From: Candidatus Limnocylindria bacterium
Lineage (GTDB): Bacteria; Desulfobacterota; Binatia; DP-6
Direction of reading: 5' to 3'
Length of the DNA stretch: 64,000 nucleotides
Assembly: GCA_035559675.1 (NCBI GenBank)
Contig: DATMAZ010000224.1
Location: 670-64,669 of the forward strand
Under the pieces are notes generated by a model. It was not told the DNA's origin. It saw only the letters and a program-made list of their open reading frames with translations, and did not search any database. The translations under genes were made by a program, and so were the position numbers. How positions within the stretch are numbered: the first letter of the stretch is position 1; each line of letters begins with the position of its first letter. Positions 14,960 through 64,000 of this stretch are shown in pieces.

Positions 14960-15028
14960 CCCGGCGCTACCACCGGGGGACGCCCGCTGTCCAGGTGGCG
15001 TTTCTTGGGCGGCGCACCATCTAAGGTG

Positions 15029-18780: not shown

Positions 18781-18835
18781 AGGCGCCCCGGGCGGGGATC
18801 GACAAGAGGCGGCGGCGTTTCCTAGAGTCGCGGCC

Positions 18836-20486: not shown

Positions 20487-20539
20487 ACGGCCGGCGACTC
20501 TACCAGGAAGGCCGCCTCGGCGGCCATGGGGGCCGCCGC

Positions 20540-21457: not shown

Positions 21458-21529
21458 GGCGCCCGACCCTACCCCGACGGCGGGATAAAAAGTATTCCCG
21501 CCGCCGAAGCGCCTCCATAAGGGGATGGC

Positions 21530-21811
21530 ATGGCACCCGCCTCCCATGCCGCCGGCCCGTCGCCGCGCGTGACGCTGCTCGTCGTGCTGATCACGCTCGC
21601 CGCAGGCTGCGCCCGCCGCAGTCCTCCACCACCGGCGCCGGCGCCTACTGCCGCCCCGCCGCGGCTGCTCGAGTTCGAGGCCACCGCCTACTCGACGACC
21701 GGAACGACCGCCTCGGCACGCGGATCCGCGTGCGGGATGCGGGCTCCTACTCCGGAGGAGGCCGAGAACTTCGGCCGCCGCGTCCGCGTGGAGATTCTCG
21801 GCGAAAACTGA
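21530..21811 (+). CDS. Small putative lipoprotein with truncated 3D-domain-like segment
   Basis: Lipobox ITLAAGC; ATAYSTTGTTASARGS resembles the start of a 3D/RlpA-like domain, but the ORF ends early. Confidence 0.3.
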   Translation: MAPASHAAGPSPRVTLLVVLITLAAGCARRSPPPPAPAPTAAPPRLLEFEATAYSTTGTTASARGSACGMRAPTPEEAENFGRRVRVEILGEN

Positions 21812-21829
21812 CGCAGCCGTGAGCCGCCG

Positions 21830-47358: not shown

Positions 47359-49322
<1,964 letters not shown>

Positions 49323-49326
<4 letters not shown>

Positions 49327-50768
49327 GAAGGCCCGCGGTGGGGGTGGTCCTGACCAACACGCTGTCGGGGAGGAAGGAGCCGCTCGAGCCCCTCGAGCCC
49401 GGCCACGTACGGCTCTACTGGTGCGGGGTCACGGTCTACGCGCCCTGCCACGTAGGGCACGCGCGAGCACTGATCGCCGCCGACGTGCTCTACCGTTGGC
49501 TGCGCGCCCGCGGGCTCCGCGTCACCTTCGTGCGCAACTTCACCGACATCGACGACAAGATCATCCGCCGCGCTCACGAAGAGGGCATCGACCCCGCGGC
49601 GCTCGCCGAACGCGAGATCGCGGGCTTCCAGCGCGACGTCGCCGTGCTCGGCTGTCTCGCGCCCACCCACGAGCCGCGGGCCACCCGGCACATCGAGGAC
49701 ATGGTGGCGATGATCGGGCGGCTCGTGGACCGCGGCTTCGCCTATCCGGTCCCCGGCGGGAGCGTCTACTTCCGTGTCCGTCGCTTCCCCGACTATGGAA
49801 AGCTCTCGCACCGCCGCCTCGAGGACATGGAGGCCGGCGAGGAGATCGACCCCGGCAAAGAGGACCGCCACGACTTCGCGCTCTGGAAGGGCGCCAAGCC
49901 GGGCGAGCCCGCGTGGCCGAGCCCCTGGGGGCCGGGCCGGCCGGGCTGGCACATCGAGTGCTCCGCCATGGCGGCCCGCTTTCTCGGCCAGCCGATCGAC
50001 ATCCACGGCGGCGGCAGCGACCTCGTCTTCCCACACCACGAGAACGAGCTCGCGCAGTCCGAGGCCGACGGCGGCACGCCCTTCGCCCGGCTCTGGGTGC
50101 ACAACGGCATGATCACGTTCGGCGCCGAGAAGATGTCGAAGTCGCTCGGCAACGTGCGCGCCATCGCCGACGTGACCGCCGAGGTACCCGGCGAAGCGCT
50201 TCGCATGCTGTTCCTGCAGACCCACTACCGCGCTCCGCTCGACTTCTCCGGCAGCCGGCTCGACGAAGGACGCCGCGCGCTGGTGCGCGTCTGCGAGGCG
50301 CTGGCGCGCGCCGACGCGGGCGGCCTCACCCCGGCGCCCCACCCGCTCGACGGCGTGCTCGCCGCGCCGTCCTCGGAATTCGAGCGCCGCTTCTGCGAGG
50401 CGATGGACGACGACCTCAACGCCGCCAAGGCGCTCGGCCTGGTGTTCGACCGCATCACCGATTTGAACCGCGCCCTCGACGCCGGCGACCGCGCCACCGC
50501 GGCCGTGCTGCGCGACGAGATCGATCGCGCGAGCGTGTCGTTGGGGCTCCTCTCGGACGCACCGGCGGCGCTGCTCGAGCGCATGAACGTCCAGGCGCGC
50601 GAGCGCGCCGGGCTCTCGCCGGAGGAGATCGAAACCGCGATCGCCGCTCGACATGCGGCCCGCAAGCGGCGCGATTTCAAGGAAGCCGACGCCATCCGGG
50701 AGCGGCTCCGCACTCACGGCATCGTGCTGGAGGACGGCCCGGGCGGCACCACCTGGCGGGCCGAATAG
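49323..50768 (+). CDS. cysS: Cysteine--tRNA ligase
   Basis: HIGH-type motif CHVGHAR and KMSKS motif; Zn-binding Cys. The GTG at 49323 overlaps the acs stop. Internal GTG starts at 49338 or 49344 are also possible. Confidence 0.85.
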
Positions 50769-50896: not shown

Positions 50897-52432
50897 GTGT
50901 CGGCCGACGCGAACGTCCACGGCGCCGCCATCCTTTCCTACGAGAAGGAGGTGGACCTCATCTCGGAGACGCTCGCCCCGATCGTCATCGGCCCGCTGGT
51001 GGTCGTGCCGGTCGCCGACGTGACGGCCAAGCTCGAGGGCGGCGCATCGGGCCGGTTCTCGAGCGGGATCAACGGCCGCGCCGTTTTCGAGACGTCGGTC
51101 ACCGTCTCCACCAACCAGAGCCAGCCGCAGTTCGAGGATCTCGCGCTCCGCGAGATCGGCTTCAGCCCGAACGACACGCGCGTCACGTTGCACGCCGACG
51201 CCAAGATCGGCGTCGGCTCGCGGCTGAACCTGCTGCTGTTCGGCGTGACGGGTCCGTACGCGACCGCCCGCGCCTGCGCGCGCATCGCCGCGAACGTCCT
51301 CGCCTCGCCCTGCTGGACGCTCTACAGCGGCATCGACGCCGAGCTAGGCGTCCGCGTGACGACCCCGGCGATCCCGGTGCTCGGGCAGCTCGTGCTGGTC
51401 GACGTCCGCACGCCCGCGCTCTCCGCGCTCGACCTGGAGGTCGCCAGCGGCGACTGCAAAGCCCCGCCGGACGAGTCCACGCTGCCCCCCGGCAGCGGCC
51501 CCGATGCCATCCGCTTCGCCAATCCGACGTACACACCGTGGTCGCGGACGTTCGCGTCACCCATCGACGACATTTTCGCCGGGAGGTTCTCGGGGGGCTA
51601 CGTCGACCTCCAGCGGACGCTCGACGGCCATTACGTGCCTTCGGGCAGGGCGTCCAATGCCGTCGTCAAGCTGGACGAGAACGGGGCGCTCGTCTGGGCG
51701 CGCGAGCTGCGGACCGACACGGACTACGTGCTCCCGCGGCGTGTCCCGTCCTCCGACGACGCCGAGCTGCTGGTGGTGTCGCGGATTCCGACCGCTCCCA
51801 TCCTGCTCACGCGGCTCGCACAGGATGGCAGCGTGACGGATGCGCGCGCCTACGACGTCGCGGGGAGCTCGTGCGGGGTCAATCCGGTGGGGCTCGTGTC
51901 CGACGGCGCCGGCGGTGCCTGGGTCGCGGGGTCGTGCGACGGTGGGGAGGCGCAGGCGTTTCTGCTGCACGCCGGCAGGGACGGGACCAGCCTCTGGACC
52001 CTGCACTCGGAGTTCCTCCGCATCGACCTGGTCGAGCGCATCGGAAGCGACGCGTTCGTCGCCGGCCGCGAGCGCCGCGCTGGTCGGATTCGGCGGTGCG
52101 GGCCACGTGCAATGGGCGACGCCGGGTGCCCGCCAGCGCTCTGGTCCGGTCGCCGTGCGCTTGAGCGACGACGGCGGCGTCGTGGCAACCGCGCTGCTCG
52201 AGCACCCCCCCTCGGCGCGCTCTGGGCTTTCAAACCCTTCGCCAGAGATGGGTTCCTCGACTTCCTTGCCGGCACGGCCAGCGCGGATCCGCTCGGGATT
52301 GCCAGTCTCGACTGCTCGATGACCGCGAGCGATGCCAACGTCGAGGTGGTCCCGGTGTCCGTCGCCGTGAAGAGCGTCGCACTGACCTCCACGCCCCGCA
52401 CCCTCGACGTCGCCGCACAGACCGCGACCTGA
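50897..52432 (+). CDS. Hypothetical protein; possible compensating frameshifts around 52070-52220
   Basis: GTG start, the first start after the stop at 50843. A central Arg-rich stretch in this frame is paralleled by a more protein-like overlapping frame (ORF 51840-52322). Confidence 0.35.
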   Translation: MSADANVHGAAILSYEKEVDLISETLAPIVIGPLVVVPVADVTAKLEGGASGRFSSGINGRAVFETSVTVSTNQSQPQFEDLALREIGFSPNDTRVTLHADAKIGVGSRLNLLLFGVTGPYATARACARIAANVLASPCWTLYSGIDAELGVRVTTPAIPVLGQLVLVDVRTPALSALDLEVASGDCKAPPDESTLPPGSGPDAIRFANPTYTPWSRTFASPIDDIFAGRFSGGYVDLQRTLDGHYVPSGRASNAVVKLDENGALVWARELRTDTDYVLPRRVPSSDDAELLVVSRIPTAPILLTRLAQDGSVTDARAYDVAGSSCGVNPVGLVSDGAGGAWVAGSCDGGEAQAFLLHAGRDGTSLWTLHSEFLRIDLVERIGSDAFVAGRERRAGRIRRCGPRAMGDAGCPPALWSGRRALERRRRRRGNRAARAPPLGALWAFKPFARDGFLDFLAGTASADPLGIASLDCSMTASDANVEVVPVSVAVKSVALTSTPRTLDVAAQTAT

Positions 52433-52827
52433 GCCCTAGCTCACGGCCGGGACCATCCAAGCTCCGAGCGGACTCCGCCGCTCAGCCGCGACCGCAGAGG
52501 CCCCGCGCGGCGTCGCAGGTGCCGTCGCAGACGGTTCCGTCCTGCGCCCCGGTACACACGTTGCGGACCGACCACAGGCCAGCCGTGGTCGTGACGAGCG
52601 CCGCGCCCGTTGTAGCAGCCGAACTGAAGCTCGCAGCAGAGCGAGTTTGGCTCCGGGAAGGTCCCGATGCCACACGTCGCGGTCGCCTTGAGACTCAGCC
52701 GCCGATCGCTCGCGATGGTCGCCCGCGATACGCCGACGGCGGCTGCCGTCGCCTGCGTATCGCGCTACCGGGCGCGCGTGGCGTCGTTCCGCAGCTACCC
52801 CGCCACACCGTCGCAGGAGGCACACCG

Positions 52828-53403
52828 TCAGACGTCGAGCGCCTCGAACCGCCCCTGCACGTCGAGCCGCGCCGGCACGCGCGCCCGCGAGACCCGCACC
52901 TCGATCCGCCGCTCCGCGAGCCATGCGAAGCGATCGCGCACCTTGTGCATCGCGGCGTCGTCGCAATGCACGGGCAGCGTGAGCTGCAGCTGCGCCCCCG
53001 GGCCGGCGCGCAGCGTGTCCTCGCCGATCGACTCGATCGTGTAGGGCGTGAGCATTTCCGTGCGCTCAAGCGGCGCCCGGGAGGAGCCGGCTGCCGGCAC
53101 GATGCGGGCGCGCACCGACATCGCTTCGAGCGGACGACCAGGGCGCGGCGCGCGCCGGCGGCGCTGTAGCACGCGGTCGATCGTCGCCGCGGCGAGCTCG
53201 CCGTACGTCCGCACCTGCGCGAGAAGCCGGTCCGGGAGCGTGACGTCCCACGCTTCCTCGATGGCGACGGCCAGCTCGACCAGGTCGAGCGAGTCGACCG
53301 CCAGGTCGTCGCGTAGCGACACGTTGCGCTCGAGCTCGTGCTCGCCAATGCCGAGCCGCTCGGCCACCAGCGCCCGCAGCCGCCGCTCCACCTGCTCACC
53401 CAT
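52828..53403 (-). CDS. Acyl-carrier-protein domain fused to a C-terminal domain of unknown function
   Basis: N-terminal about 75 aa is ACP-like with the phosphopantetheine Ser in LAVDSLDLVELAVAIEE. About 115 further residues have no assigned domain. Confidence 0.55.
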   Translation of the reverse strand: MGEQVERRLRALVAERLGIGEHELERNVSLRDDLAVDSLDLVELAVAIEEAWDVTLPDRLLAQVRTYGELAAATIDRVLQRRRRAPRPGRPLEAMSVRARIVPAAGSSRAPLERTEMLTPYTIESIGEDTLRAGPGAQLQLTLPVHCDDAAMHKVRDRFAWLAERRIEVRVSRARVPARLDVQGRFEALDV

Positions 53404-53755
53404 CGCTCGTCTCCGGCCCCGTGCCGAGGCGCAGCCCGCACACCCGCAGCCGCACCGCCCGGTCCACCTTGCTGTCCACCGGCTCGCCGGCCCACTGCTC
53501 GGTGCCGCGCAGGCGCTCGCGCAGCGCGCGCTGCGAGACCCGCGGCCGTCGCAACCGCTCGTCGACCGGGGCGACGGCACCGTCGAGCCGGATCAACTGC
53601 GTACCCGGGCGCCACGGCCCGCCGAGCGGTGCCAGCGTGAGGATCTGGATCATCTCACCGCCCTGAATCGCCACCCGATCCACCGCGTCGACCCGGCACA
53701 CCACGCGCCGAGGCAGGTCTACCGGGAAGACGTAATCGCCGACGTCGTACAGCAT
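53396..53755 (-). CDS. Hypothetical protein
   Basis: ORF overlapping the downstream ACP-fusion start; GC3 bias; start uncertain. Confidence 0.35.
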   Translation of the reverse strand: MLYDVGDYVFPVDLPRRVVCRVDAVDRVAIQGGEMIQILTLAPLGGPWRPGTQLIRLDGAVAPVDERLRRPRVSQRALRERLRGTEQWAGEPVDSKVDRAVRLRVCGLRLGTGPETSDG

Positions 53756-54041
53756 CGCGGTCTCGTGCCCACCTTGCACGGGCCGTGCCGCCCGGTCGGG
53801 GGCCCATGCGGCGTGCTCGGGCAGGTGGCCGTGTCACGGGGCCACCACATCGCCGGCCGCGCGCTCGACGAAACGCCACGCCGAATCGCTACGATTCGCG
53901 GGACGATCCGCCGAGCGTCATGCGTGTGCCCGCACCGCCACGTTCACGACTCCCGGCCCGCGGGGAGGCGAACCGCCCCCGCCCGCGCCGCGGCGGCGCG
54001 CCGGCGTCGCTCCACGTTCACGCTTGTCCGGCCGGTGACGC

Positions 54042-54800
54042 TCAGCCGGCCATGGTGAGGCCGCCGGAGACGCTCAGCACCTGCCCGGTCACGTACTCCG
54101 CTCCGTCAGATGCGAAGTACGCGACCGCCGCCGCCACGTCCTCCGGCTGGCCGAAGCGTCCGAGGGGAATCGCCCGCCGCACCGCGTCCATGATCTTGGC
54201 GCCGCGAGCCGAGCCGCGCACCTGGTCGAGCAACGCGGTCTCGGTCGGTCCCGGGCAGATCGCATTCACGGTGATGCCCTGGCGCGCCACCTCGCGCGCC
54301 AGCGACTTGGTGAAGCCGATGAGCCCGGCCTTGCAGGCGGCATAGACCGTCTCGCCCATGCTGCCCACGCGCCCGGCGTCGGAGGACACGTTGACGATGC
54401 GGCCGCCGCGGCGCGCCGTCATGCCGTCGAGCACGGCACGCGTGACGCTGAACGCCCCGCGGAGGTTGATGGCGATGAGCCGGTCCCAGAGCGCCGGCTC
54501 GTTCTCCATGAAGGGCTCGAGGCGGTCCCAGCCGGCGTTGTTCACCAGCACCCACAGGGGTGGCAGCCGGGCCTCCACCTCCAGCACCGCCGTCGCCACC
54601 CCCGCCTGATCGGTCACGTCGAGCGGGAACGCGGCGGCCTCGCCCCCGGCGGCCCGGATGGCCGCCGCCGTACGTTCGGCCTCGGCGCCGTCGCGGTCGG
54701 TGACCGCTACCGCCAGGCCCGAGTCGGCGAGCGCCCGCGCCACGGCGGCGCCGATGCCGCGCGCGGCCCCGGTGACCAGCGCCGAGCGGGCCGCCGCCAT
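54042..54800 (-). CDS. SDR-family 3-oxoacyl/3-hydroxyacyl reductase (FabG-like)
   Basis: TGAARGIG, NNAG, catalytic Y-x3-K (YAACK). Confidence 0.8.
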   Translation of the reverse strand: MAAARSALVTGAARGIGAAVARALADSGLAVAVTDRDGAEAERTAAAIRAAGGEAAAFPLDVTDQAGVATAVLEVEARLPPLWVLVNNAGWDRLEPFMENEPALWDRLIAINLRGAFSVTRAVLDGMTARRGGRIVNVSSDAGRVGSMGETVYAACKAGLIGFTKSLAREVARQGITVNAICPGPTETALLDQVRGSARGAKIMDAVRRAIPLGRFGQPEDVAAAVAYFASDGAEYVTGQVLSVSGGLTMAG

Positions 54801-54802
54801 GC

Positions 54803-55234
54803 TCAGCGACGTCCCGGCAGCGCCGCGGTGAACGTGCCGGTGACGGCCGTCTCGCCGGTCTGGCGGGTGGCCACGAGCTCGCCGTCGATGCGCCGCTCGC
54901 CGTCGGCCTCGTACTTCCTCGTCACCCGGCCGGTGCACGTGATGCGGTCGCCCGGCCAGACGCGCGTCGCGAAGCGGACCTTGTAGCGCCGGAGGTTCTC
55001 CACGCCGACGGCGTCGGTGAGGCACTTGGCGAGCAACCCGGCGGTCAGCATGCCGTGCCCGAACACCGTGGGGTTTCCCGCCGCCTTGGCGAACTCCTCG
55101 TCGTGATGGATCGGGTTGAAGTCCCCCGAGGCGCCCGCGTAGCGCACGAGATCGGTACGCGTGAGCTTCTCTACCACGAACGGCGGCAGCTCGGTGCCCT
55201 CCTGCACGTCGTCGAAGGCCCAGGCCATGGTCAC
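54803..55234 (-). CDS. MaoC-like (R)-specific enoyl-CoA hydratase hotdog domain
   Basis: MaoC dehydratase signature ...GDFNPIHHDEEFAKAAG... Confidence 0.75.
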   Translation of the reverse strand: MTMAWAFDDVQEGTELPPFVVEKLTRTDLVRYAGASGDFNPIHHDEEFAKAAGNPTVFGHGMLTAGLLAKCLTDAVGVENLRRYKVRFATRVWPGDRITCTGRVTRKYEADGERRIDGELVATRQTGETAVTGTFTAALPGRR

Positions 55235-55677
55235 TCCTTCACCGCGTCGGCGGTCTCGATGAGGGTGTTCCGCATGTAGGCCACCACCTCGCCGCGCTGG
55301 TTCCTGAACTCCGTCTCGCCCAGCACGAAGGTCATCGTGCCGCCGCGCTTGCCCTGCTTCTCGAACACGTCCTTCGTGCGGGAGCGAAAGGTGAGGACGT
55401 CACCGGCGCGAATGGGCCGCAGGTATTCGAACTCCTGCTCGCCGTGCAGCAGCCGGCGGTAATCGAGCTTCATGCCCTGGCGCGTCTCGCCCAGGCTTCC
55501 CACCCAATGCGCGATGGTCATGAGGAAGGTGGGCGGCGCGGGCGGCGCGTCGCCGGTCGTGAAGACCGGGTTGTCGTCCTTCACGGCGCGCGCGAACTCC
55601 ATGATTTTGCCGCGCTCCACGCAGAGCCGCCCTTCTGGCCCCCATTGTCCGATGACGCTGCGGTCGATCTCCGCCAT
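55231..55677 (-). CDS. MaoC N-terminal-like hotdog domain protein (partner subunit)
   Basis: Hotdog fold without the catalytic HxxxD motif; 4-nt overlap with the downstream MaoC gene; ChsH1/ChsH2-like pair arrangement. Confidence 0.6.
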   Translation of the reverse strand: MAEIDRSVIGQWGPEGRLCVERGKIMEFARAVKDDNPVFTTGDAPPAPPTFLMTIAHWVGSLGETRQGMKLDYRRLLHGEQEFEYLRPIRAGDVLTFRSRTKDVFEKQGKRGGTMTFVLGETEFRNQRGEVVAYMRNTLIETADAVKE

Positions 55678-55688
55678 GCGGCTCGCCC

Positions 55689-56825
55689 TCAGAGGTTGAT
55701 CAGCTGCGCCACCAGCTCGCGGTTCCAGGTGGCGTCGCCGAAGGTGACTTCCGAACTCTTCGCCCGCTTGAAGTACAGATGCATGTCGTGCTCCCAGGTG
55801 AAGCCGATGCCGCCGTGGATCTGGATGCCCTCGCCGGCGGTGTGGCGGTACGCGTCCGAGCAGTACGCCTTCGCCATGGCGGCCGCGAGCGGCGCCTCGG
55901 CGACGTCGTTCGCCACCGCCCAGCCGGCGTAGTACGTGATCGACTTCGAGCTCTCCACCTCGACCAGCATGTTGGCGCACTTGTGCTGGATCGCCTGGAA
56001 GCTGCCGATGGGCCGGCCGAACTGTTCGCGCACCTTGGCGTACTCGACCGACATGTCGAGGACGCGTTGCGCGCCCCCGCACATCTCGGCGCAGAGCGCC
56101 ACCTTGGCGCGATCGACGACGCGCTCGAGGAGCCGCCAGCCATCACCCACGGCGCCCAGCACGCGCTCGGCGCCCACCGCCACGTTGTCGAGCCGCACCT
56201 CGGCCAGCTTGCGCGTCTGGTCCATGGTCTTGAGCAGGGTGGTCGTGACGCCGGGCGCGGTGCGGTCCACGAGGAAGAGCCCGATGCCGTCGCGGCCGGT
56301 CGAGCCGGGCTCGCGGCCCGCCACGACCAGCAGGTCGGCCGTGTGGCCGTCCGGCACGAAGAGCTTCGTTCCGGAGAGGCGATAGCCCGCGCCGTCGCGC
56401 TTCGATTCGAGCGCGATGCCGTCGGCGTCCCAGCGCCCGGACGGCTCGAGCTGCGCCACGGTGGCGATCCGTTTGCCCGCCGCGATCGCCGGGAGCCATT
56501 CCTGCTTCTGCGCGTCGCTGCCGCCTTCGAGGAGCGCCACGGCGCCGAGCGCCACCGTGGAGAAGAACGGCCCAGGTGTGACGAGCCGGCCCATCTCCTC
56601 GAGCACCACCACCAGGTCGACGAACGTGAGCCCGCTGCCGCCGTACTGCTCCGGGAGGATGAGCCCCATCCATCCGAGCTCGGCCATCTGCCGCCAGACG
56701 GCATCCGTGAAGCCGCGGTCGTCGTCCATCATCTTCCGGACGTAGGGAATGTCGCATTCCTTCGTGAGGAAATCGCGCGCGGCGCTGCGGAGCATCTCCT
56801 GCTCTTCGCTGAAGCCAAAATCCAT
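55689..56825 (-). CDS. Acyl-CoA dehydrogenase
   Basis: ACAD N, middle and C-terminal domains; the catalytic Glu is in YAGWAVANDVAEAPL... (the G367 site discussed in the hunt); FAD-binding. Confidence 0.8.
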   Translation of the reverse strand: MDFGFSEEQEMLRSAARDFLTKECDIPYVRKMMDDDRGFTDAVWRQMAELGWMGLILPEQYGGSGLTFVDLVVVLEEMGRLVTPGPFFSTVALGAVALLEGGSDAQKQEWLPAIAAGKRIATVAQLEPSGRWDADGIALESKRDGAGYRLSGTKLFVPDGHTADLLVVAGREPGSTGRDGIGLFLVDRTAPGVTTTLLKTMDQTRKLAEVRLDNVAVGAERVLGAVGDGWRLLERVVDRAKVALCAEMCGGAQRVLDMSVEYAKVREQFGRPIGSFQAIQHKCANMLVEVESSKSITYYAGWAVANDVAEAPLAAAMAKAYCSDAYRHTAGEGIQIHGGIGFTWEHDMHLYFKRAKSSEVTFGDATWNRELVAQLINL

Positions 56826-56874
56826 GGTCTCGGTCGAGTACCAGAATTCCTTCAGGGGTGCCAAGAACGACCCG

Positions 56875-57477
56875 TCACCCCGCTCCAACCGCGCGTCCAC
56901 CACGTGCGCCCGTCGCCGCGACGGGGCCGTCGCCCGAGGGCTCGGACGACGAGCGCCGCACCTCGTCGAGGATGAGCGACGCGTAGTACTCGAGGTTGCG
57001 CCCGATCAGGACGGGATCGGGCGCGTCGCCGACGCGTGCATAGACGGCCGTGCCGCTGGCGTTGCTGGCACCGACGACCAGCGCAAGCTCGCGCCCGTGG
57101 GCGTCGCTCACGTAGACGCGCAGCGCCCCGTCGTCGAAGCCGAACGCACGCTCGTCGGCGTCGCCGGCAGGCACGCGCTCGATCTCCTCCAGGGCCGTCA
57201 GCGCCTCGACGAACGCCTGCACCAGGCCCGCGGGCACCTGGCCCCCGGGCGGCTGCTCCACGGTCCACTGCTCGCCGTAGCGCCGCAGCGCCACGGCCGC
57301 ACCATCGCGCTCCATGCGGACGCCCACGACCTCGTTGGTGGGCAGCTCGGCCAGCAGCCGGCGCCGTTCGGGTCGCTCGGCCGGCGGGACGGTCGGGCGG
57401 CGGCGATCGACGAGCCAGTACTGGGCGGCGAGCCCGCTCGCCACCAGCCAGAGCACGATCACCTGCCGCCAGCGCAT
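56875..57477 (-). CDS. DUF4340-like membrane-anchored protein (accessory to the GldG-type ABC system)
   Basis: N-terminal TM anchor; position immediately downstream of gldG-like; family assignment tentative. Confidence 0.4.
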   Translation of the reverse strand: MRWRQVIVLWLVASGLAAQYWLVDRRRPTVPPAERPERRRLLAELPTNEVVGVRMERDGAAVALRRYGEQWTVEQPPGGQVPAGLVQAFVEALTALEEIERVPAGDADERAFGFDDGALRVYVSDAHGRELALVVGASNASGTAVYARVGDAPDPVLIGRNLEYYASLILDEVRRSSSEPSGDGPVAATGARGGRAVGAG

Positions 57478-57478
57478 T

Positions 57479-58861
57479 TCAGCCCCACCGCCGCCGCGCC
57501 GCGAGCACCAGCCCGACGACCAGGAAGACGGCTGGCTGCAGAATGACCGTCTGCCAAAAGATCCGGTCGCCCTGCTCGTCGGTGACGTAGAACTGGTTCA
57601 CGCCGGGGATGGCGCGTTCCGGCCGGTGCGTCATCGCCGCCTCGTCCTCGCTCACCCAGGCAATCGCGTTCAGCACCAGGTCCTTGTTCCCGAGGTAGTC
57701 GAGGAAGAAGTTGTTCGCAAAGTCCGAGTCGCCGAGCACCACGAGCCGCCCCCGTCGCTCAAGCATGCCGGGCTCGCGGAGACCCGGAAACGTCACCGCC
57801 ACGCCCACCGGAACCGGCCCGCGTTGATCGCGACCCTCGACGAACGTGGCGCTTCCCTGGCGGAGCGCGCTCGTGTCGGGCGTGCTCCAGCTCTCCCGGC
57901 TGGTGAACAGGAAGGGCTCCGCCACGATCGTCCCGGCCTCCTCCGGCGTGCCCGTTCGCACCGGCCGGACCCGCGAGAACAGCGGGTCGGCGGTTAGCGG
58001 CGCCACGATCGGATGGCTGCGCTCGCCGGTGACGAGCCGCATGGTCAACCACTCGCCGCCGTGGAGACGGCCGCTCGGATCGACCACGATCTCCTCGTCG
58101 AGCGCCACCTGGTAGCGCGAGAGCGAGCGCGCCAGCTCCGGCGCCTTCAGCGGATCCAGCATGATCAAGGCGCGGCCCGGCTGTTGCAGGTAGCCGTTCA
58201 GCACCGCCAGCTCCTCGGGGAGAAAGTCCTGCTTGGGGCCGGCAATCACCACGGCATCCGTATCGTCCGGAATCCCCGCCGTGCCGAGCGTCGTCGGACG
58301 CACGACGTACTGCTCCTCGCCGAGCACGCGGCGCAACCGCGCGAACCCCGTCTGCCGCTCGGTGCTCTCGATGTCGCCCTCCCCGTGACCGACCACCCAC
58401 GCCAGCCGCCGCGGCGTCGGCCGCGTGACCGCCAGCAGCCCGGCCAGCAACGAGTCCTCCGTGGGATTCGACACGAGGCGGCGCCGCCCGCCCGCCTCGA
58501 GCACCACGCCCACGCCGTAGACCTCGTACTCGCGTGCCAGCGCCGGCGCACGATTGAGGTCGAGCATCTCGACCTCGATGCGCGGCGTCACCGCCGTCAC
58601 CTGGGTCAGGAGATCGCGGATGGGCACGTTGCGCGGGTCCATCGAGCGAAGGAACGCCAGGGCTCGCACGTCGACGTCGAGATCGCGCAGCACCTCGCGG
58701 GCACGCGGCGAGAGCGTGTAGCGCCGTTCGGGCGTGAGGTCGGCCCGCCAGCCGCGCGCGTCCAGCACCAACTGGCCGAAGATGAAGATCCCGACCAGCG
58801 CGGGAAGCGCCGCGGCGAGCCGCACCCACTGCGCGCCGGCGGTCAGCGGCGGCCGCGCCAC
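57479..58861 (-). CDS. GldG-like ABC-type transport auxiliary component
   Basis: N- and C-terminal TM anchors around a large periplasmic domain typical of the GldG family. GTG start overlaps the permease stop. Confidence 0.65.
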   Translation of the reverse strand: MARPPLTAGAQWVRLAAALPALVGIFIFGQLVLDARGWRADLTPERRYTLSPRAREVLRDLDVDVRALAFLRSMDPRNVPIRDLLTQVTAVTPRIEVEMLDLNRAPALAREYEVYGVGVVLEAGGRRRLVSNPTEDSLLAGLLAVTRPTPRRLAWVVGHGEGDIESTERQTGFARLRRVLGEEQYVVRPTTLGTAGIPDDTDAVVIAGPKQDFLPEELAVLNGYLQQPGRALIMLDPLKAPELARSLSRYQVALDEEIVVDPSGRLHGGEWLTMRLVTGERSHPIVAPLTADPLFSRVRPVRTGTPEEAGTIVAEPFLFTSRESWSTPDTSALRQGSATFVEGRDQRGPVPVGVAVTFPGLREPGMLERRGRLVVLGDSDFANNFFLDYLGNKDLVLNAIAWVSEDEAAMTHRPERAIPGVNQFYVTDEQGDRIFWQTVILQPAVFLVVGLVLAARRRWG

Positions 58862-59589
58862 TGTCGCGCCTCCAGCACGCGCAGCGTGCCCCACCAGAAG
58901 CCCGCGGTGAGCGCGAGGAAGTAGAACACGTCGCGCACCTCGATGACCCCCACCGAGAACGACTGAAAGTGATCGAACAGGGACAGCGCTCGCAGGATGG
59001 TCACCGTGTCGGCGCCGACCGCCGCCTCGTTCCACGACAGGAGCCAGAGAAGAAAGAGCGGCATCACCGTGAGGAAGCCGGCGAGCACCTGGCTCGAGGT
59101 GAGCGACGACACGAAGAGCCCGTAGGCGATGCAGGTCGAGGAGAGGAGCAGCAGCCCGAGATACCCGGCGGCGATCGGGGGCAGCGCGAAGGGCTGCACC
59201 GCGTAGATGAGCGCGGGATACGTCGTCGTGGCGGCGAGCAACGCGCCCACCGCCACGAGGCAGGCCACGAACTTGGCGGCCACCACCGCCTGGTCGCTCA
59301 GCGGGTAGGTGAGCAGCAGCTCGAGCGTCCCGAGCCGGCGCTCCTCGGCGAGAAGCCCCATCGTGAGCAGCGGAATCGACAGGATGAGCACGAGGCGCAC
59401 GTCGAAGAAGACCAGCTGCCACAGGTTCTCCATGATGTTCATGCCGAACCCGAAGGTGAGGAAGTAGACGAGGTCGGAGTGCAGGTAGAAGCCCGTGTAG
59501 GCGAGGAACGCCGCCGCCACGAGGTACCAGAGCGGTCCCCCGAAGTAGACACGCAGCTCCTTGCGCAGTAGCGCGACGAACGGCGTCAT
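58843..59589 (-). CDS. ABC-2 type transporter permease (GldF-like)
   Basis: Six TM helices; ABC-2 family pattern. Confidence 0.75.
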   Translation of the reverse strand: MTPFVALLRKELRVYFGGPLWYLVAAAFLAYTGFYLHSDLVYFLTFGFGMNIMENLWQLVFFDVRLVLILSIPLLTMGLLAEERRLGTLELLLTYPLSDQAVVAAKFVACLVAVGALLAATTTYPALIYAVQPFALPPIAAGYLGLLLLSSTCIAYGLFVSSLTSSQVLAGFLTVMPLFLLWLLSWNEAAVGADTVTILRALSLFDHFQSFSVGVIEVRDVFYFLALTAGFWWGTLRVLEARQWRGRR

Positions 59590-59590
59590 C

Positions 59591-60544
59591 CTAGCCCACC
59601 AACCGCACGAACAGGTCCTCCAGCGTCGGCTCCTCCGCGCGGATTTCGAGCAGGGTCCAGCCGCGTGCCACCACCAGGCTCGCGAGCCGGGCCTGCACGT
59701 CGCGGGCGTCGCTCGTGCGCACCACCCAGGTGCGCCCCGCCCCCGCCGCCTCGGGTCTCGACTCGACGGCGCTCACGCCGGCAAGCTCGGCGAGCGCGGC
59801 CCGCACGTCTTCTGGCGGTCCGTCGATGCGGACGACCACGCTGTTCGTCCACCCGAGGCGGCGGGCGAGCCCCTCCGGGGTGTCGTCGGCCACCAGCCGG
59901 CCCTCCTTCAGCACGATCACCCGCCGGCAGAGCTGGCTCGCCTCGGCGAGCAGATGGGTCGACAGCAGCACGGTGCAGCGGGCGAGCGACTTGAGCAGCG
60001 CTCGCATCTCGACCGTCTGCATGGGATCGAGCCCGACGGTCGGCTCGTCGAGCACCAGCACGTCGGGGTCGCCGAGCAGCGCCTGCGCGAGCCCCACGCG
60101 CTGGCGGTAGCCCTTCGACAGCGTCCCGGCAAATCGGCTCGCCATGGGGCCGAGCCCGCAGGCCTCGATCACGTGCTCGACGGCCGCGCGCGCGGCCGTG
60201 CCGCTGAGGCCCTTCGCGCCGGCGACGAAGCGCAGGTAGCGGCGGACGGTGAGCTCCGGGTAGAGCATCACCTGCTCGGGGAGGTAGCCGATGCGCGAGC
60301 GCTCGCGCACCGGGTGCATGGTCACGTCCCGGCCGTCGAGCAACACGCGGCCGCTGGTCGGCGAGAAGAAGCCGATGAGGCAGCGCATGAGCGTGCTCTT
60401 CCCGGACCCGTTGGGTCCGAGCAGCGCCGCCACCTCGCCGCGGCCCACCCCGAACGACACGTCCGAGACGGCCCGCGTCGCGCCGTAGAACTTCGTGAGC
60501 TGTTCGACCGCGATCAGCGGCGCGTCAGTGCCCGGACTGCCCAC
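59591..60544 (-). CDS. ABC transporter ATP-binding protein (GldA-like)
   Basis: Walker A GPNGSGKST, signature LSKGYRQRV, Walker B VLVLDEP. Confidence 0.85.
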   Translation of the reverse strand: MGSPGTDAPLIAVEQLTKFYGATRAVSDVSFGVGRGEVAALLGPNGSGKSTLMRCLIGFFSPTSGRVLLDGRDVTMHPVRERSRIGYLPEQVMLYPELTVRRYLRFVAGAKGLSGTAARAAVEHVIEACGLGPMASRFAGTLSKGYRQRVGLAQALLGDPDVLVLDEPTVGLDPMQTVEMRALLKSLARCTVLLSTHLLAEASQLCRRVIVLKEGRLVADDTPEGLARRLGWTNSVVVRIDGPPEDVRAALAELAGVSAVESRPEAAGAGRTWVVRTSDARDVQARLASLVVARGWTLLEIRAEEPTLEDLFVRLVG

Positions 60545-60647
60545 CCTGCTCTCTTCGCCGCCGCCGCCGCGCGTGGATGACCTCGTCCACCGCGATCAAG
60601 AGGAAGCTGAAGCCGAGGCAGATGCCGACCGATTCCCAGAGTCCCAT
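60525..60647 (-). CDS. Possible 40-aa small membrane peptide
   Basis: ATG 60647 with a GAGGAG RBS 6 nt upstream; one hydrophobic helix then an Arg-rich tail; overlaps the ATPase start by 20 nt. Confidence 0.3.
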   Translation of the reverse strand: MGLWESVGICLGFSFLLIAVDEVIHARRRRRREQGGQSGH

Positions 60648-60657
60648 GACGTGCTCC

Positions 60658-63330
60658 TCAGCTCGCCGCCTGCGCGGTTTGGATGTGCTGGCGGCGGTGG
60701 CCGCGGGCTGCTTCGCGCATGATGAACTTTGGCCGCACGAGCGCGATCAGCACCGGCATCAGCGTTTCCGCCGCGACGAAGCTCACCATCATCCACACCG
60801 CGAGAAAGCCGCCCATTACCGCGTTGAAGCGAATATTCGAGAGCATCCAGAGCGCGGTGCTGAACACCATGCAGACCGCGGTGAAACTCACCGCCTTCCC
60901 GGACGTGCAGAGCGCCTCACGAATCGCCTGATCGAGATCGCCCGAAATGCGGATCTCCTCGATAACGCGGCTCACGATGTAGAGGCCGTAGTCGATACCG
61001 AAGCCGACGCCGACGGTGACGAGCGGCAGCGTGTTGATATTGATGCCGATCCCGAGGGTGGCCATGAGGCCGTTCACCAGGATGTTGGAGATGAAGAGCG
61101 GCGCCAGCAGCAGGAACCCGGCGATCGCCGAGCGGTAGGTGAAGAACACGATAACGAACATCGTGCCGAAGCCGAGCGCGTTCATCATGAGGTCGTTGCG
61201 CACCAACTCCTCGTTAGCCGCGGCCAGCACCCCGATGAGCCCGCCGGCCAGCTTGAACTCCGCCTTTTCCATCGGGTTCTCGGCAATGAACTCTTTGGCG
61301 CGAGCGATGATGCGCGCCACGTTGTCGCCCTGGTGGTTACGGCAGAAGAAGGTAACATGCGCGGTCTGGTAGTCCGGCGTCACGTACTTCGACGTCTCGG
61401 TCGGCGGCGAGTTCGCGAAGAACACGAAGAACGTCTGGCCGACGTCACGGGCCGTGTTCGGCACCACGCCCCATTTCGGCTCGAACTCGTGGAACACCTG
61501 GTTCACCGTGCGCAGGATGTCGGTGAGCGAGAAGCTGTAGCCGACGTCCGGGTCGCGCTCGAGGAAGCGCTGGAACTTCTCCATCGTGCGCAGCGCTTGC
61601 GGGTCCTTCATGGCGTCGCGGTCGTACCCCTCGGCCACCACGATGAGCGGCTCCACGCCGCCGAACTTCTCCTGGATGTGGGCGTGCGAGACGTTGTAGG
61701 GCGAATCCTCCCAGACCAGCGGCGAGGCCGAGGTCGGGTCGCCGACGATCAGCCCCCGCATCTGCAAGAGGCCGATCACCGTGACGACGCCCCAAAACGT
61801 CAGCGTCGCGGCCTTGCCGACCCGCGAAAGGTTCCAGTCGGTCACGCGGTTGATGAGCGCCCGGTACCAGCCCTTTTCACGCGCCTGCACGACCTCGGGA
61901 TCGGGCGCGCGCAGATAGTAGTAGACGATGGGGTTCAGCAGCATCTCCGCGACGGTGATCGCGAGAATCCACCACGAGGCCACGATCGCCAGCTTCCGCA
62001 GCATGACGATCGGCACCAGCATGACGACCAGCACGCCGAAGGCGTCGGTCAGAATGCCCGAGAGCGTCGGGATAAAGAGCTCCGCGAAGGCCGCCACGAT
62101 GGCCGATTTTTGGTCCCATTTGTGGCGTTCGAACTCTTCGTAGTAGCGGTCGTGCATCTGGATCGCGTGGCTCACCGCGCGCGCCGTGATGAGGAACGGC
62201 ATCACCAGGATCAACGGGTCGAGCGCGAACCCGATGAGGTGCACGAAGCCGAGGCCCCAGAAGGCGGCGATCACGCCGGTGAGCGTCGGCCGCAGCGAGC
62301 CGCGCCAGTCGTGGAAGTACATCCAGCGGAGGATCCACTCGAGGCAGTAGGTCAACGTGAAGATCAGGAAGACGTCGTTGGCGTAACTGTACACCCAGCC
62401 ATAGAGCCGCGGCTCACCGGCGACGTAAATGCGCATGTCGGGCGCGCGCTTGGTGAGCTCAACCGGCTGCTCCGCGCCGGCCCGCTTTACCGTGAGCGTG
62501 ACCCTGTCGCCCGGCTCGTGAGCCGCCATCACCAGCGCGAGCGCCGTCCGGTCGGCCACCGGTCGGCCGTCCACGGCCGTGATGATGTCGCCCGCCTTCA
62601 GCCCGGCCTCGGCGGCGGCCGTGTCGGGATAGACCACCTCGATCTCGGCCGGCTGGATCTCGTCCTTCTTGAGGACGTTGCGCCCCTTCACGAGGGCGCC
62701 GATCCAGCCGCCCTCGAACGGCGCGATCACGTTCTCGTTGATTTCGGTGAACGTCCGGCGGTGGTCGAGGCGGCCCTCAATGAAGTTGGCGCGGATCAGC
62801 GCGGCGCGATCGTCGAGCGAGACGAGGATGCCGTAGATGCTTTCGGTGTTGTGAACGATGCGGCGGATCGCCGCCGCGTCCTTGGGGGTCTTGGGCAGCC
62901 CCACCATGACCGGCTCGGCCCGGAGAAAACCGCCCGAGAGCGCCTTCAGGTAGCGCGTGGTGCGGTGGCCGATCGAATCGATCTGGTTGTGGTTCACGCC
63001 ATAGACCTGATCCACGGCCTCCGTCATCCGGTAGATCCGGGCCAGCGTCTCGACCGTGAAGATGTTCCCCTGCTCGACCTCCACCATGATCTGCACGTTG
63101 TTCGCACCGCCGAACGTCGGCGCGTACTTGTTGTGCACCGCGACGAAGGGGTGGCTCTGAGGCAGCAGGTCGCCGAAGCTCGTCTCGAGCTTCAGCTGGA
63201 AGCTCCAGTAGGCGAACATCGCCGTCACCAGCAGCACGAGGATCGACACCGGGTGGCGGTACTGGATCAGCTTTTCGCCGAGCCAATAGAGGGCTTGCTT
63301 GTCCTGGGCGCTCGTCTCACCGGCACTCAT
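60658..63330 (-). CDS. RND-superfamily (MMPL/HpnN-like) exporter with a PDZ domain embedded in the first periplasmic loop
   Basis: 12 TM helices in 1+5/1+5 topology with two large periplasmic loops. PDZ-like segment VVYPDTAAAEAGLKAGDIITAVDGRPV...DRVTLTVKRAG at about 62440-62650. GC about 60%. Confidence 0.75.
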   Translation of the reverse strand: MSAGETSAQDKQALYWLGEKLIQYRHPVSILVLLVTAMFAYWSFQLKLETSFGDLLPQSHPFVAVHNKYAPTFGGANNVQIMVEVEQGNIFTVETLARIYRMTEAVDQVYGVNHNQIDSIGHRTTRYLKALSGGFLRAEPVMVGLPKTPKDAAAIRRIVHNTESIYGILVSLDDRAALIRANFIEGRLDHRRTFTEINENVIAPFEGGWIGALVKGRNVLKKDEIQPAEIEVVYPDTAAAEAGLKAGDIITAVDGRPVADRTALALVMAAHEPGDRVTLTVKRAGAEQPVELTKRAPDMRIYVAGEPRLYGWVYSYANDVFLIFTLTYCLEWILRWMYFHDWRGSLRPTLTGVIAAFWGLGFVHLIGFALDPLILVMPFLITARAVSHAIQMHDRYYEEFERHKWDQKSAIVAAFAELFIPTLSGILTDAFGVLVVMLVPIVMLRKLAIVASWWILAITVAEMLLNPIVYYYLRAPDPEVVQAREKGWYRALINRVTDWNLSRVGKAATLTFWGVVTVIGLLQMRGLIVGDPTSASPLVWEDSPYNVSHAHIQEKFGGVEPLIVVAEGYDRDAMKDPQALRTMEKFQRFLERDPDVGYSFSLTDILRTVNQVFHEFEPKWGVVPNTARDVGQTFFVFFANSPPTETSKYVTPDYQTAHVTFFCRNHQGDNVARIIARAKEFIAENPMEKAEFKLAGGLIGVLAAANEELVRNDLMMNALGFGTMFVIVFFTYRSAIAGFLLLAPLFISNILVNGLMATLGIGININTLPLVTVGVGFGIDYGLYIVSRVIEEIRISGDLDQAIREALCTSGKAVSFTAVCMVFSTALWMLSNIRFNAVMGGFLAVWMMVSFVAAETLMPVLIALVRPKFIMREAARGHRRQHIQTAQAAS

Positions 63331-63348
63331 GGGAGTCTCCTGAGCCTT

Positions 63349-64000
63349 TCACCCTTGCGAAGGCAGCCACGTCTTGCCGCCGTCGGTCGTCCGGAAGATG
63401 AGGCCGAAGCCTCCGACCATCCAGCCGTGTTGCTGATCGGAGAAATCGAGCGCACGCAGCCAGGTGAGCACGTCCTGACCGATGTTCGCCCGCTTCCAGC
63501 TCGCAGCGCCCGCTTCCTTCCGGAAGATCTCGCCTGCGGCGCCGACCGCCCATCCCGAGCCGTCCGGAAACTCTTCCAGGTCGAAGAGAGGGTCTTGCAT
63601 CTTGATCTCGCCGACGTCGAGCGGATCGTAGCTCCAGTCCACGCCGCCGTTGGTGGTGCGCGCGATGTGCCCCTCGATGCCGGCCGCGAGCACCTGCTGC
63701 GGATCCTTGACGAACAGCCCGAACAGGCTCGGCAGGTCGAGCGGGTCGAAGTACCCCGACTTCTCGAGCAAGCTCCGATTCTGCTCGGTCCAGGTGGCGC
63801 CGCCGTCCTCGGTGTAGAAAATCTTGCCGAACTCGCCGACCACCCAGCCGCGGTTCGGATCGACGAAGCGGACGTCGTAGAGCACGGGATCGGCCGCGGC
63901 AAGCTCCTCCTCGGCCGTGCCGTCCCCGGGCGCTTTCACCTTCTGGTAGGTCCAGGTGGCGCCGCCGTCGCGGGTCGAAACCAGGGTCGAGCGGTCGCCC
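63349..64000 (-). CDS. Ycf48/BNR-repeat beta-propeller protein; partial, 5' end lies beyond the window
   Basis: Repeated TxDGGxTW motifs (TEDGGATW, TTNGGVDW, TTDGGKTW). Confidence 0.65.
   Translation of the reverse strand, partial: GDRSTLVSTRDGGATWTYQKVKAPGDGTAEEELAAADPVLYDVRFVDPNRGWVVGEFGKIFYTEDGGATWTEQNRSLLEKSGYFDPLDLPSLFGLFVKDPQQVLAAGIEGHIARTTNGGVDWSYDPLDVGEIKMQDPLFDLEEFPDGSGWAVGAAGEIFRKEAGAASWKRANIGQDVLTWLRALDFSDQQHGWMVGGFGLIFRTTDGGKTWLPSQG

Follow-up and report, generated by a model that had tools for sequence, protein, structure and literature searches.

Gene clusters coding a Ycf48-like protein, an RND transporter and a DUF1329 protein recur beside terpene, aromatic, steroid and fatty-ester pathways; their mechanism is unsolved, as is that of the ABC systems with GldG and DUF4340 components. 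The AmeABCD proteins of Castellaniella defragrans (DUF1302, LolA-like DUF1329, COG4447 and HAE3 RND proteins, respectively) are encoded within a monoterpene catabolic island and their deletion lowers monoterpene tolerance and dye efflux (PMC6394551). The highly expressed "nanopod" cluster of the benzene-degrading Desulfobacterota ORM2a codes a porin-like protein, a DUF1329 protein, a Ycf48-related protein and an MMPL transporter (PMC13101534). DUF1302, DUF1329, BNR and RND genes are cofit in Shewanella, Pseudomonas and Kangiella, the P. putida set being important on Tween 20 and fatty esters (10.1101/072470; 10.1101/2020.07.04.188060). Here we analyze a stretch of 64,000 nucleotides from contig DATMAZ010000224.1 (the window) whose segment 54042–64000 codes a Ycf48-like/RND pair, a GldA/F/G-like ABC-2 system and a set of enzymes of beta-oxidation type. 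The segment would be a reduced version of a vertically inherited, Binatia-type operon. The closest described systems are AmeABCD and the nanopod cluster, not HpnN or BstA.

The likeness to AmeABCD is found at the level of protein families. The Ycf48-like gene lies immediately 5′ of a HAE3/MMPL-like RND gene, as AmeC/AmeD, a DUF1329 gene (the AmeB counterpart) is present in the operon of relatives, and CoA-dependent enzymes for a hydrophobic substrate are encoded around the pair. The differences are the other gene order, the loss of DUF1329 in the window and the absence of the DUF1302 barrel (PF06980), which was found neither in the gene tables of loci L076, L077 and L078 (±10 kb) nor among the scanned open reading frames (ORFs) of the window, the contig being read only up to window position 64000. 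Furthermore, the RND has a PDZ insertion and 890 aa (787 aa in AmeD), a GldA/F/G-like ABC system with a DUF4340 protein and a 40-aa peptide are additional, and the host belongs to Binatia rather than to Betaproteobacteria. The ORM2a cluster shares DUF1329, the Ycf48-related protein and the MMPL-family RND, and its lineage, related to Desulfobacterota, is linked to hydrophobic substrates, but it also codes a universal stress protein and a porin-like protein and is devoid of ABC/GldG/DUF4340 genes and of adjacent acyl-CoA dehydrogenase (ACAD), hydratase and short-chain dehydrogenase (SDR) genes. The cofit DUF1302/DUF1329/BNR/RND group has in common with the window the BNR (Ycf48-like) and RND pair and the tie to DUF1329, and its Pseudomonas copy is found beside fatty-acid catabolic genes; these sets, however, are proteobacterial and consist of four genes, one of them for a DUF1302 barrel; some are distributed over two loci, and PDZ and ABC-2 proteins are absent. 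The present operon is set apart by the PDZ insertion, the small RND-associated peptide and the GldA/F/G-like ABC system with DUF4340, physically joined to an enzyme set.

The region has a GC content of 70–75% and its reading frames were chosen by the GC content at the third codon position (GC3). Only minus-strand frames are coding between 52828 and the window end, giving 13 genes (Table 1), and neighbouring genes are spaced by −20 to +49 nt with the exception of one 286-nt gap. In the order of transcription the distances are 18 nt (Ycf48-like to RND), 10 nt (RND to 40-aa ORF), −20 nt (40-aa ORF to ABC ATPase), 1 nt (ATPase to ABC-2 permease), −19 nt (permease to GldG-like), 1 nt (GldG-like to DUF4340), 49 nt (DUF4340 to ACAD), 11 nt (ACAD to the non-catalytic hotdog subunit, HotN), 2 nt (HotN to MaoC), 2 nt (MaoC to SDR), 286 nt (SDR to hyp119) and −8 nt (hyp119 to the acyl carrier protein (ACP) fusion). 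The single minus-strand run with tight or overlapping borders described in the initial annotation is thus borne out by frames and spacing. Its one large gap also exists, but the 260 nt given for it were counted to a longer ORF; the distance is 286 nt to the likely AUG codon of the next gene (ATG at 53755). The hidden Markov model search of each protein that had been proposed earlier was run and every named Pfam family scored above its gathering threshold: PSII_BNR, MMPL with PDZ, ABC_tran, ABC2_membrane_2, ABC_transp_aux, DUF4340, three ACAD domains, FAS1_DH_region, MaoC_dehydratas, adh_short and PP-binding. The RND and Ycf48-like genes have a lower GC content than their neighbours, as first noticed, though not of about 60%: the values are 64.6% and 67.0%, respectively (63–66% in 1-kb windows), vs. 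69–75% for most neighbour genes. The reading of this dip as a sign of foreign DNA was rejected because the GC3 of the two genes (0.92 and 0.88) is the same as that of their neighbours. The dip arises at codon positions 1 and 2 (0.62 and 0.40), is alike in the orthologues, and corresponds to the composition of hydrophobic membrane proteins. A consensus scan identified neither sigma-70-like promoters in the locus nor a terminator-like site in the 286-nt gap, and an Rfam scan of 52000–64000 gave no match.

Table 1. Coordinates of the features of the locus and of its downstream neighbours in the window.
Feature	Position	Strand	Remarks
Ycf48-like (COG4447-type) beta-propeller	63349–64000	−	last 216 of ~361 codons; cut by window end
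RND transporter, 890 aa, MMPL/HAE3-like	60658–63330	−	PDZ in first periplasmic loop
40-aa single-pass membrane peptide MGLWESVGICLGFSFLLIAVDEVIHARRRRRREQGGQSGH	60525–60647	−	conserved small ORF
ABC ATPase, GldA/DrrA-like	59591–60544	−	Pfam ABC_tran, 118 bits
ABC-2 permease, GldF-like	58843–59589	−	Pfam ABC2_membrane_2
GldG-like auxiliary protein	57479–58861	−	Pfam ABC_transp_aux, 81 bits
DUF4340 protein, N-terminally anchored, periplasmic	56875–57477	−	Pfam DUF4340, 34 bits
Junction left by loss of DUF1329, CoA-transferase and KASIII-like–DUF35 genes	56826–56874	−	alignment with L078
Acyl-CoA dehydrogenase-fold protein (ACAD), 378 aa	55689–56825	−	three ACAD Pfam domains
HotN, non-catalytic hotdog subunit, HadA-like, 148 aa	55231–55677	−	FAS1_DH_region, 97 bits
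Catalytic MaoC-type (R)-hydratase subunit, HadB-like	54803–55228	−	MaoC_dehydratas, 80 bits
SDR, 3-hydroxyacyl-thioester dehydrogenase/3-oxoacyl reductase type	54042–54800	−	adh_short_C2, 224 bits
Intergenic region, 286 nt	53756–54041	−	sigma-54-type element and two repeat copies
hyp119, 119 aa, unknown family	53396–53755	−	GC3 0.90; first gene of two-gene module
ACP fused to ~100-aa C-terminal alpha/beta domain	52828–53403	−	PP-binding, DSLD serine motif
Unassigned protein, ~510–528 aa	50846/50897–52432	+	start uncertain; downstream, converging on locus
CysS	49323–50768	+	downstream, converging on locus
Acetyl-CoA synthetase (acs)	47389–49311	+	downstream, converging on locus

The conservation of the locus was assessed in the 10 kb to each side of 74 RND homologues from species-representative genomes, in which the window proteins were placed by tblastn; gene calls and Pfam matches were obtained for five loci. 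Conserved synteny, on which the initial annotation had made its interpretation depend, was found. The core order (small lipoprotein)–Ycf48-like–RND/PDZ–40-aa peptide–ABC–ABC2–GldG–DUF4340 ... ACAD–hotdogN–MaoC–SDR recurs in about 12 divergent metagenome-assembled genomes (MAGs) labelled Candidatus Binatia or delta proteobacterium, being complete in L002/L076, L003, L006, L010, L012, L014, L015, L041/L077, L043, L078 and L080. Clade A (L002/L076, L003, L005–L010, L012, L014, L015, L038, L041/L077 and L043) groups loci whose RND is 70–80% identical to the one of the window and includes the PDZ domain. Its operons are headed by divergent genes for a sigma-54 activator and an HTH_3 regulator and by a gene for a signal-peptide protein of ~150–170 aa. 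The genes for the Ycf48-like protein, RND-PDZ, the small peptide, ABC, ABC-2, GldG, DUF4340 and one or two DUF1329 proteins come next, followed by a family-III CoA-transferase and/or a KASIII-like–DUF35 fusion, with or without an SCP-x thiolase, and then by ACAD, HotN, MaoC and SDR before a convergent gene. DUF1329 follows DUF4340 in 14 of the 14 clade-A loci that are long enough, with the CoA-transferase and KASIII-like–DUF35 genes after it, and the enzyme genes are present without counter-example in all clade-A loci that reach far enough. Tandem DUF1329 genes are found after DUF4340 in L005 (~10570–11470 and from 11601), L008, L010 and L038. In L005 and L008 an SCP-x-type thiolase gene after KASIII-like–DUF35 gives a trio resembling PhlABC or thiolase–HMGCS–DUF35.

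The flanks of the operon vary, with Tad pilus genes (L077) or thiolase, DUF35 and YhhN genes (L076) upstream, and MlaD (L077) or CysS (L076) downstream. In clade B (L019, L022, L024, L037), with an RND ~60% and a CysS 51% identical to those of the window, the ACAD (47–50% identity) and SDR (53–57%) genes abut DUF4340, and the hotdog and DUF1329 genes are absent. Clades C and D have lipoprotein–Ycf48–RND with or without the ABC set and no enzymes, while clade E has an RND of ~780 aa and neither PDZ nor Ycf48. Identities of RND, ACAD and CysS to the window are 92%, 91% and 89% in L078, 79%, 78% and 70% in L003, and 62%, 50% and 51% in L019, respectively; the conservation of RND, ACAD and hydratase equals or exceeds that of CysS. 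The earlier proposal that the transporter and the ACAD–hydratase–SDR genes are one conserved unit holds: they stay together in clade A despite the changed flanks. The transporter core is widespread among the relatives, and its link to ACAD and SDR is conserved, since it is kept in both clade A and clade B, whose divergence is as deep as that of their housekeeping genes.

In clade B, genes for an AtuC-like carboxyltransferase, AtuA (acyclic terpene utilisation) and an enoyl-CoA hydratase lie some kb upstream of Ycf48–RND (L019 1217–5435; also in L022, L024 and L037). These genes hint at isoprenoid-acid metabolism or terpenoid substrates; none of them occurs in the window or in clade A. The AMP-binding gene of clade B was considered as a possible AtuH-like activating enzyme and rejected, being of the acetyl-CoA-synthetase type (ACAS_N domain). 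It is 70% identical to the window gene at 47389–49311 and travels with cysS.

At the DUF4340–ACAD junction, where the window is without genes that clade A carries, intermediate states are found in two relatives. In L080, whose ACAD is 87% identical, DUF1329 and the CoA-transferase are gone and the 461-aa KASIII-like–DUF35 gene is intact (759–2144). Only a 134-aa ORF (14589–14993) is left in L078; its residues 1–97 and 94–134 match the two ends of the KASIII-like–DUF35 gene and it therefore corresponds to an in-frame internal deletion. The 49-nt spacer of the window aligns just upstream of this remnant and continues at the ACAD start codon, a clean deletion, relative to L078, of the remnant ORF and its downstream spacer. 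No tblastn match to DUF1329, CoA-transferase or KASIII-like–DUF35 was obtained anywhere in the 64-kb window. The window is the most reduced member of the series L080, L078, window, the genes having been lost in steps. This natural loss series reveals which parts of the operon are dispensable.

The RND homologues with 70–92% identity and the 74 loci belong nearly all to genomes labelled Candidatus Binatia, "uncultured delta proteobacterium", Deltaproteobacteria or Thermodesulfobacteriota, with a few Myxococcales or Polyangiaceae labels. The acs and cysS genes of the window are 70–89% identical to those adjoining the same operon in Binatia-type MAGs. Because of these identities to Binatia and "delta proteobacterium" MAGs, in the operon as in acs–cysS, the organism most likely belongs to Binatota. 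A Myxococcota host, as assumed in the initial annotation, is not supported by the labels of the closest relatives (Candidatus Binatia or "delta proteobacterium"). The window RND protein is identical to the NCBI record of a MAG labelled Candidatus Limnocylindria (Chloroflexota), and the contig was probably mis-binned or mislabelled as such.

The Ycf48-like gene is found directly 5′ of the RND gene in more than 40 related loci. Its product scores 73.6 bits with Pfam PSII_BNR and 80 bits, below cut-off, with the NCBIfam Ycf48 model. The RND, which has more than 100 homologues at 70–92% identity, matches Pfam MMPL (88 bits; cut-off 20.5) and PDZ_2/PDZ_6/PDZ. Its top NCBIfam model is HAE3 (TIGR00921, 122 bits vs. 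a cut-off of 351.9), and its top PDB matches, MmpL5/4/3 and HpnN, extend over the second transmembrane bundle only. The assignment to a HpnN- or sterol-type family made in the initial annotation was not upheld: the scores are 53.3 bits with TIGR03480 (cut-off 751.85) and 29.6 bits with NF052374 (cut-off 1100) for HpnN, and 32.1 bits with NF045600 (cut-off 1400) for BstA, and the RND has no match to the sterol-sensing Pfam family. HpnN and BstA belong to the same superfamily (HAE3/MMPL-like, with 12 transmembrane helices and two periplasmic loops), but these scores are far below the model cut-offs and hopanoid or sterol genes are not nearby. HpnN is not known to work with Ycf48-like or DUF1329 partners.

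The PDZ domain of the RND covers residues ~206–293 (nt ~62452–62715). An AlphaFold model computed from a 16-sequence alignment (mean pLDDT 55, pTM 0.45) was used only for the order of secondary structure elements, which sets the PDZ between transmembrane helices 1 and 2; the domain is therefore predicted to be periplasmic. No other part of the RND is less conserved than this domain (50–60% identity within clade A), and its segment gave no tblastn match in clades C, D and E. The clade E RND (~780 aa) is clearly without the insert, while those of clades C and D, of similar length to the window protein, may have a diverged PDZ. The 40-aa peptide, only a candidate in the initial annotation, is a real conserved gene: it is called in L001, L076, L077 and L078, and clades A, C, D and E share the motif GLW(E/S)S..IV..FS..VI..DE at the position following RND. 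The peptide would bind the RND as a probable small subunit, comparable to AcrZ, the accessory subunit of AcrB, which is also a single-pass peptide of ~40–50 aa conserved with its RND pump. The two cases differ in that the peptide is encoded straight after the RND gene here while acrB and the AcrZ gene are not adjacent.

The ABC genes follow the order ATPase, ABC-2 permease, GldG-type auxiliary protein known from GldA/GldF/GldG of Flavobacterium gliding motility. GldA is the top NCBIfam model of the ATPase, the permease matches GldF only and the auxiliary protein is most similar to GldG, but scores are far below the equivalog cut-offs (264.2 vs. 402.6 for GldA, 124.8 vs. 288.5 for GldF, 50 vs. 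389.85 for GldG), no gliding apparatus is present, and the window set is trailed by DUF4340 and coupled to an RND. The GldG-like protein has membrane anchors at its N- and C-termini and a large periplasmic domain, its start at 58861 matches the L078 gene call, and it has sub-threshold Pfam matches to DUF7088 (27.0 bits; cut-off 27.8) and IFT52_GIFT (19.9 bits; cut-off 27.2). The DUF4340 gene (45 homologues) comes after GldG in every related locus; the C-terminal tail of its product in the window is unlike that of relatives.

The enzyme genes close the operon. The ACAD has pimD_small (264.6 bits; cut-off 652.7) and IpdE2 (209 bits; cut-off 450) as best NCBIfam models, both being small subunits of two-subunit ACADs. 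Aligned to 1ukw and 4l1f, the protein has Phe where the YEG motif has its catalytic Glu, which sets it apart from the canonical homotetrameric ACADs, and the FAD-contact motifs are altered (L, RWD and FVP stand in for the Ser/Thr and WIS motifs). The substitution is kept in orthologues, 10 of which share T(F/Y)GD. The alternative Glu position of the IVD/LCAD type is apparently Ala. A two-subunit (alpha2beta2) arrangement as in PimCD, IpdE1E2 or ChsE was not found either, the operon having a single ACAD gene in the window, L076, L077, L078 and L080. The ACAD genes of L014 (~20592–21740) and L043 (~20776–21919), from long-read "MFD" MAGs, have local frame shifts that are probably assembly indel errors and not signs of pseudogenes.

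The MaoC subunit carries the hydratase-2 motif YAGASGDFNPIHHD with the catalytic Asp and His. HotN is without this motif and reads DDNPVF, the catalytic His being absent. The initial annotation had compared the two with ChsH1/ChsH2 of steroid side-chain degradation. The MaoC subunit, however, matches HadB/MSMEG-type dehydratases in the PDB (4v12, 5i7n and HadB; E-values of 1e-17 to 1e-19) far better than ChsH1/ChsH2 (1.4e-5). HotN matches Rv0504c, HadC and HadA in the PDB and HadA as top NCBIfam model, with no ChsH2 among its PDB matches and no DUF35 domain, FAS1_DH_region being its only one. The pair is, by these matches, closer to HadA/HadB and mycobacterial double-hotdog dehydratases than to ChsH1/ChsH2, although HadA (47.5 bits; cut-off 180) and HadB (76.4 bits; cut-off 203), its best models, are below their equivalog cut-offs. 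Adjacent hotdog genes of which one is catalytic and the other is not are a feature shared with both mycobacterial HadAB/HadBC and ChsH1–ChsH2(–Ltp2), and the DUF35 domain and thiolase-like protein of the relatives' operons recall ChsH2–Ltp2, while the context differs from that of HadAB in being of CoA type and not FAS-II. The SDR, with BadH as top NCBIfam model (317 bits; cut-off 431), passes the FabG subfamily model PRK12826.1-2. It is the final gene of the conserved operon, and the next gene past it is convergent in L076 and L077.

Taken together, the operon would move a hydrophobic acyl compound through the envelope and process it with beta-oxidation-type enzymes. The RND-PDZ, its Ycf48-like partner and the 40-aa peptide represent the AmeC/AmeD-type pair of Ame and nanopod clusters, and the GldA/F/G-like ABC-2 transporter with its periplasmic GldG and DUF4340 accessories a second transport part. 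The enzyme part consists of the ACAD-fold protein, a heteromeric (R)-specific hydratase (HadB-like catalytic and HadA-like non-catalytic subunits) and the SDR. With the additional genes of the fuller relatives a whole round would be covered, from activation through dehydrogenation, hydration and oxidation to cleavage. The enzyme set of the fuller relatives (family-III CoA-transferase, ACAD, hydratase, SDR, thiolase-like/DUF35) has the makeup of beta-oxidation modules for bulky acids, such as the Bbs module (benzylsuccinate degradation) or the enzymes acting on steroid side chains. By analogy with Ame-type clusters, we favor a role in the trafficking of, tolerance to and/or catabolism of a lipophilic, bulky carboxylic substrate that is terpenoid-, alicyclic- or lipid-like, a proposal in which our confidence is evenly balanced. 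The initial annotation is thus confirmed in its observation and partly supported in its interpretation: handling of a bulky hydrophobic acyl compound is reasonable, but the link to sterols or hopanoids has lost its basis, as the HpnN and BstA models fail and no hopanoid, sterol or polyketide genes, including squalene/hopene genes, were found in the operon or in ~35 other window ORFs scanned.

Several points weigh against Ame-like substrate handling. Co-transcription is deduced from gene spacing only. No DUF1302 outer-membrane barrel is found in any locus table. The Phe of the ACAD, its altered FAD motifs and the missing partner gene indicate that the beta-oxidation chemistry may be non-canonical. 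The window is without CoA-transferase, thiolase-like protein and DUF1329, leaving a pathway that is incomplete or completed in trans. The locus is also chromosomally stable beside acs–cysS and highly conserved, which fits a housekeeping envelope function equally, and RND and ABC-2 systems are typically exporters, which suits such a role too.

A serious rival, though less likely, is the idea of the initial annotation in its general form: modification and outward transport of a lipid of the cells' own envelope, with the RND and ABC-2 systems working outwards and the Ycf48-like, GldG, DUF4340 and, in relatives, DUF1329 proteins as escorts through the periplasm. Besides the exporter nature of ABC-2 systems, this agrees with the lipid export carried out by characterised HAE3/MMPL relatives (HpnN and MmpL3/4/5 being the top PDB matches), with an RND more conserved than CysS at a fixed position next to acs–cysS, and with the LolA-like character of DUF1329; for the DUF1302/DUF1329/BNR/RND group, Price et al. 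suggested "export of a cell wall component". The enzymes of relatives are, however, catabolic in type (family-III CoA-transferase, thiolase-like/DUF35, ACAD), and neither the operon nor the ~35 other window ORFs scanned include hopanoid, sterol or polyketide genes for lipid biosynthesis, the HpnN and BstA scores being far below threshold. Furthermore, the lineage of the window kept the remaining operon after losing its LolA-like, CoA-transferase and thiolase genes, and these genomes hold several paralogous RND/Ycf48 loci.

An organization in two or three unrelated units (RND/Ycf48; ABC/GldG/DUF4340; enzymes) that are neighbours through shared descent only is improbable in our opinion. It would account for the Ycf48–RND genes, with or without the ABC set, that stand without enzymes in clades C and D, for the variable middle segment, and for the gaps of 50–170 nt before the enzyme genes in relatives, which are all from one phylum-level lineage so that synteny could be partly inherited. 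It does not explain why the order is kept while flanks change, why ACAD–SDR comes straight after DUF4340 in clade B despite a CysS identity of no more than 51%, or why the window after its deletion still joins enzyme to transporter genes at 49 nt.

A more speculative extension, which we consider decidedly improbable, is that the Ycf48-like protein, RND-PDZ, 40-aa subunit, ABC-2, GldG, DUF4340 and the ancestral DUF1329 form one envelope-spanning conveyor with two motors (proton-motive force and ATP) for a lineage-specific lipid or hydrophobic polymer fragment, the Glu-less ACAD and HadAB-like hydratase being a non-canonical tailoring or hand-over module at the cytoplasmic face. If true, this would be a type of lipid-trafficking machine undescribed in diderm bacteria.

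Whatever the cargo, the operon provides a conserved, vertically inherited case, in the widespread uncultured phylum Binatota, of both transporter types linked to defined enzymes, and the locus is a well-defined test case for complex structure prediction, heterologous expression and metatranscriptome mining.

The hyp119 and ACP-fusion genes had been included in the locus by the initial annotation, but they lie elsewhere in other genomes and have their own conserved promoter-like element. The pair is found after the SDR gene in L078 and L080 and not there in L076 and L077; in the L015 genome (clade A) an ACP-fusion homologue and the operon are ~240 kb apart, and in L082 a homologous small-protein and ACP-fusion pair is found amid unrelated genes. 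The possibility that the two are non-conserved genes was ruled out by their presence in L078 and L080. Upstream of hyp119, at 53775–53789 (minus strand), lies the sigma-54-type promoter-like element GGCACGgcccGTGCA, identified by GG and GC elements 10 nt apart (TGGCACG-N4-TTGCW) at a conserved position. Its −24/−12 bases are invariant and its spacer variable across the window, L078 and L080, which is the signature of a putative sigma-54 promoter, and a comparable sigma-54-type element precedes the homologous pair in L082. Further upstream the sequence GTGAACGTGG, expected 0.13 times in the whole window, occurs in two exact copies spaced by 74 nt (53938–53947 and 54012–54021, minus strand); one copy is also found upstream of the homologous pair in L082. 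The pair (52828–53755) thus appears, from its sequence context, to be a separate sigma-54-type unit outside the operon. An ACP-dependent biosynthetic line spanning 52828–64000, in which a HadAB-like dehydratase, a FabG-like reductase and an acyl-ACP dehydrogenase would make a lipid for an MMPL-type pump, is highly improbable: HadA/HadB and FabG are indeed the closest or passing curated models of the hotdog pair and SDR, the window, L078 and L080 have an ACP gene next to the operon, and MmpL5 is reported to bind the ACP AcpM (PMC11633376; PDB 9rfu), but the hyp119–ACP pair is absent from the L076/L077 operon, distant in L015 and in unrelated context in L082, is preceded by its own element after a 286-nt gap, and the locus has no ketosynthase, acyltransferase or phosphopantetheinyl transferase while relatives carry a CoA-transferase.

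The hyp119 protein has no Pfam match; it is 81% and 74% identical to its counterparts in L078 and L080, respectively, and homologous to the product of a 95-aa gene before the ACP fusion in L082. The ACP has the PP-binding fold and the conserved Ser in a DSL motif. Its C-terminal domain, which matched no family, is predicted as beta-beta-alpha-beta-alpha-beta (pLDDT ~88–93) with conserved residues R114, T119-P120-Y121, G134, L139 and F159, and ~90 homologues of the fusion are found mostly on short metagenome contigs. Another element, TGGCACGTCAGTTGCT, with a near-perfect sigma-54 consensus, is found in L078 (6255–6290, minus strand) upstream of the divergent HTH_3/sigma-54-activator genes, a placement that suggests autoregulation in this closest relative. 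The matching region of the window's contig falls outside the window, and the contig beyond the window end probably includes the start of the Ycf48-like gene, the small lipoprotein gene and the regulator genes.

Other window genes include those for a class-I CoA-transferase (17356–18780, minus strand), a Rieske ring-hydroxylating oxygenase alpha subunit (18710–20134, plus strand) and an SDR (20540–21547, minus strand), which may form a small catabolic cluster at 17356–21547, and a WS/DGAT wax-ester synthase gene (41398–42888, minus strand). The gene at 7106–9403 (plus strand) codes a 765-aa protein of unusual architecture, in which a peptidase C13-like region is combined with a PDZ domain and, at the C-terminus, a thioredoxin/redoxin domain, and which is the second PDZ protein of the window besides the RND.

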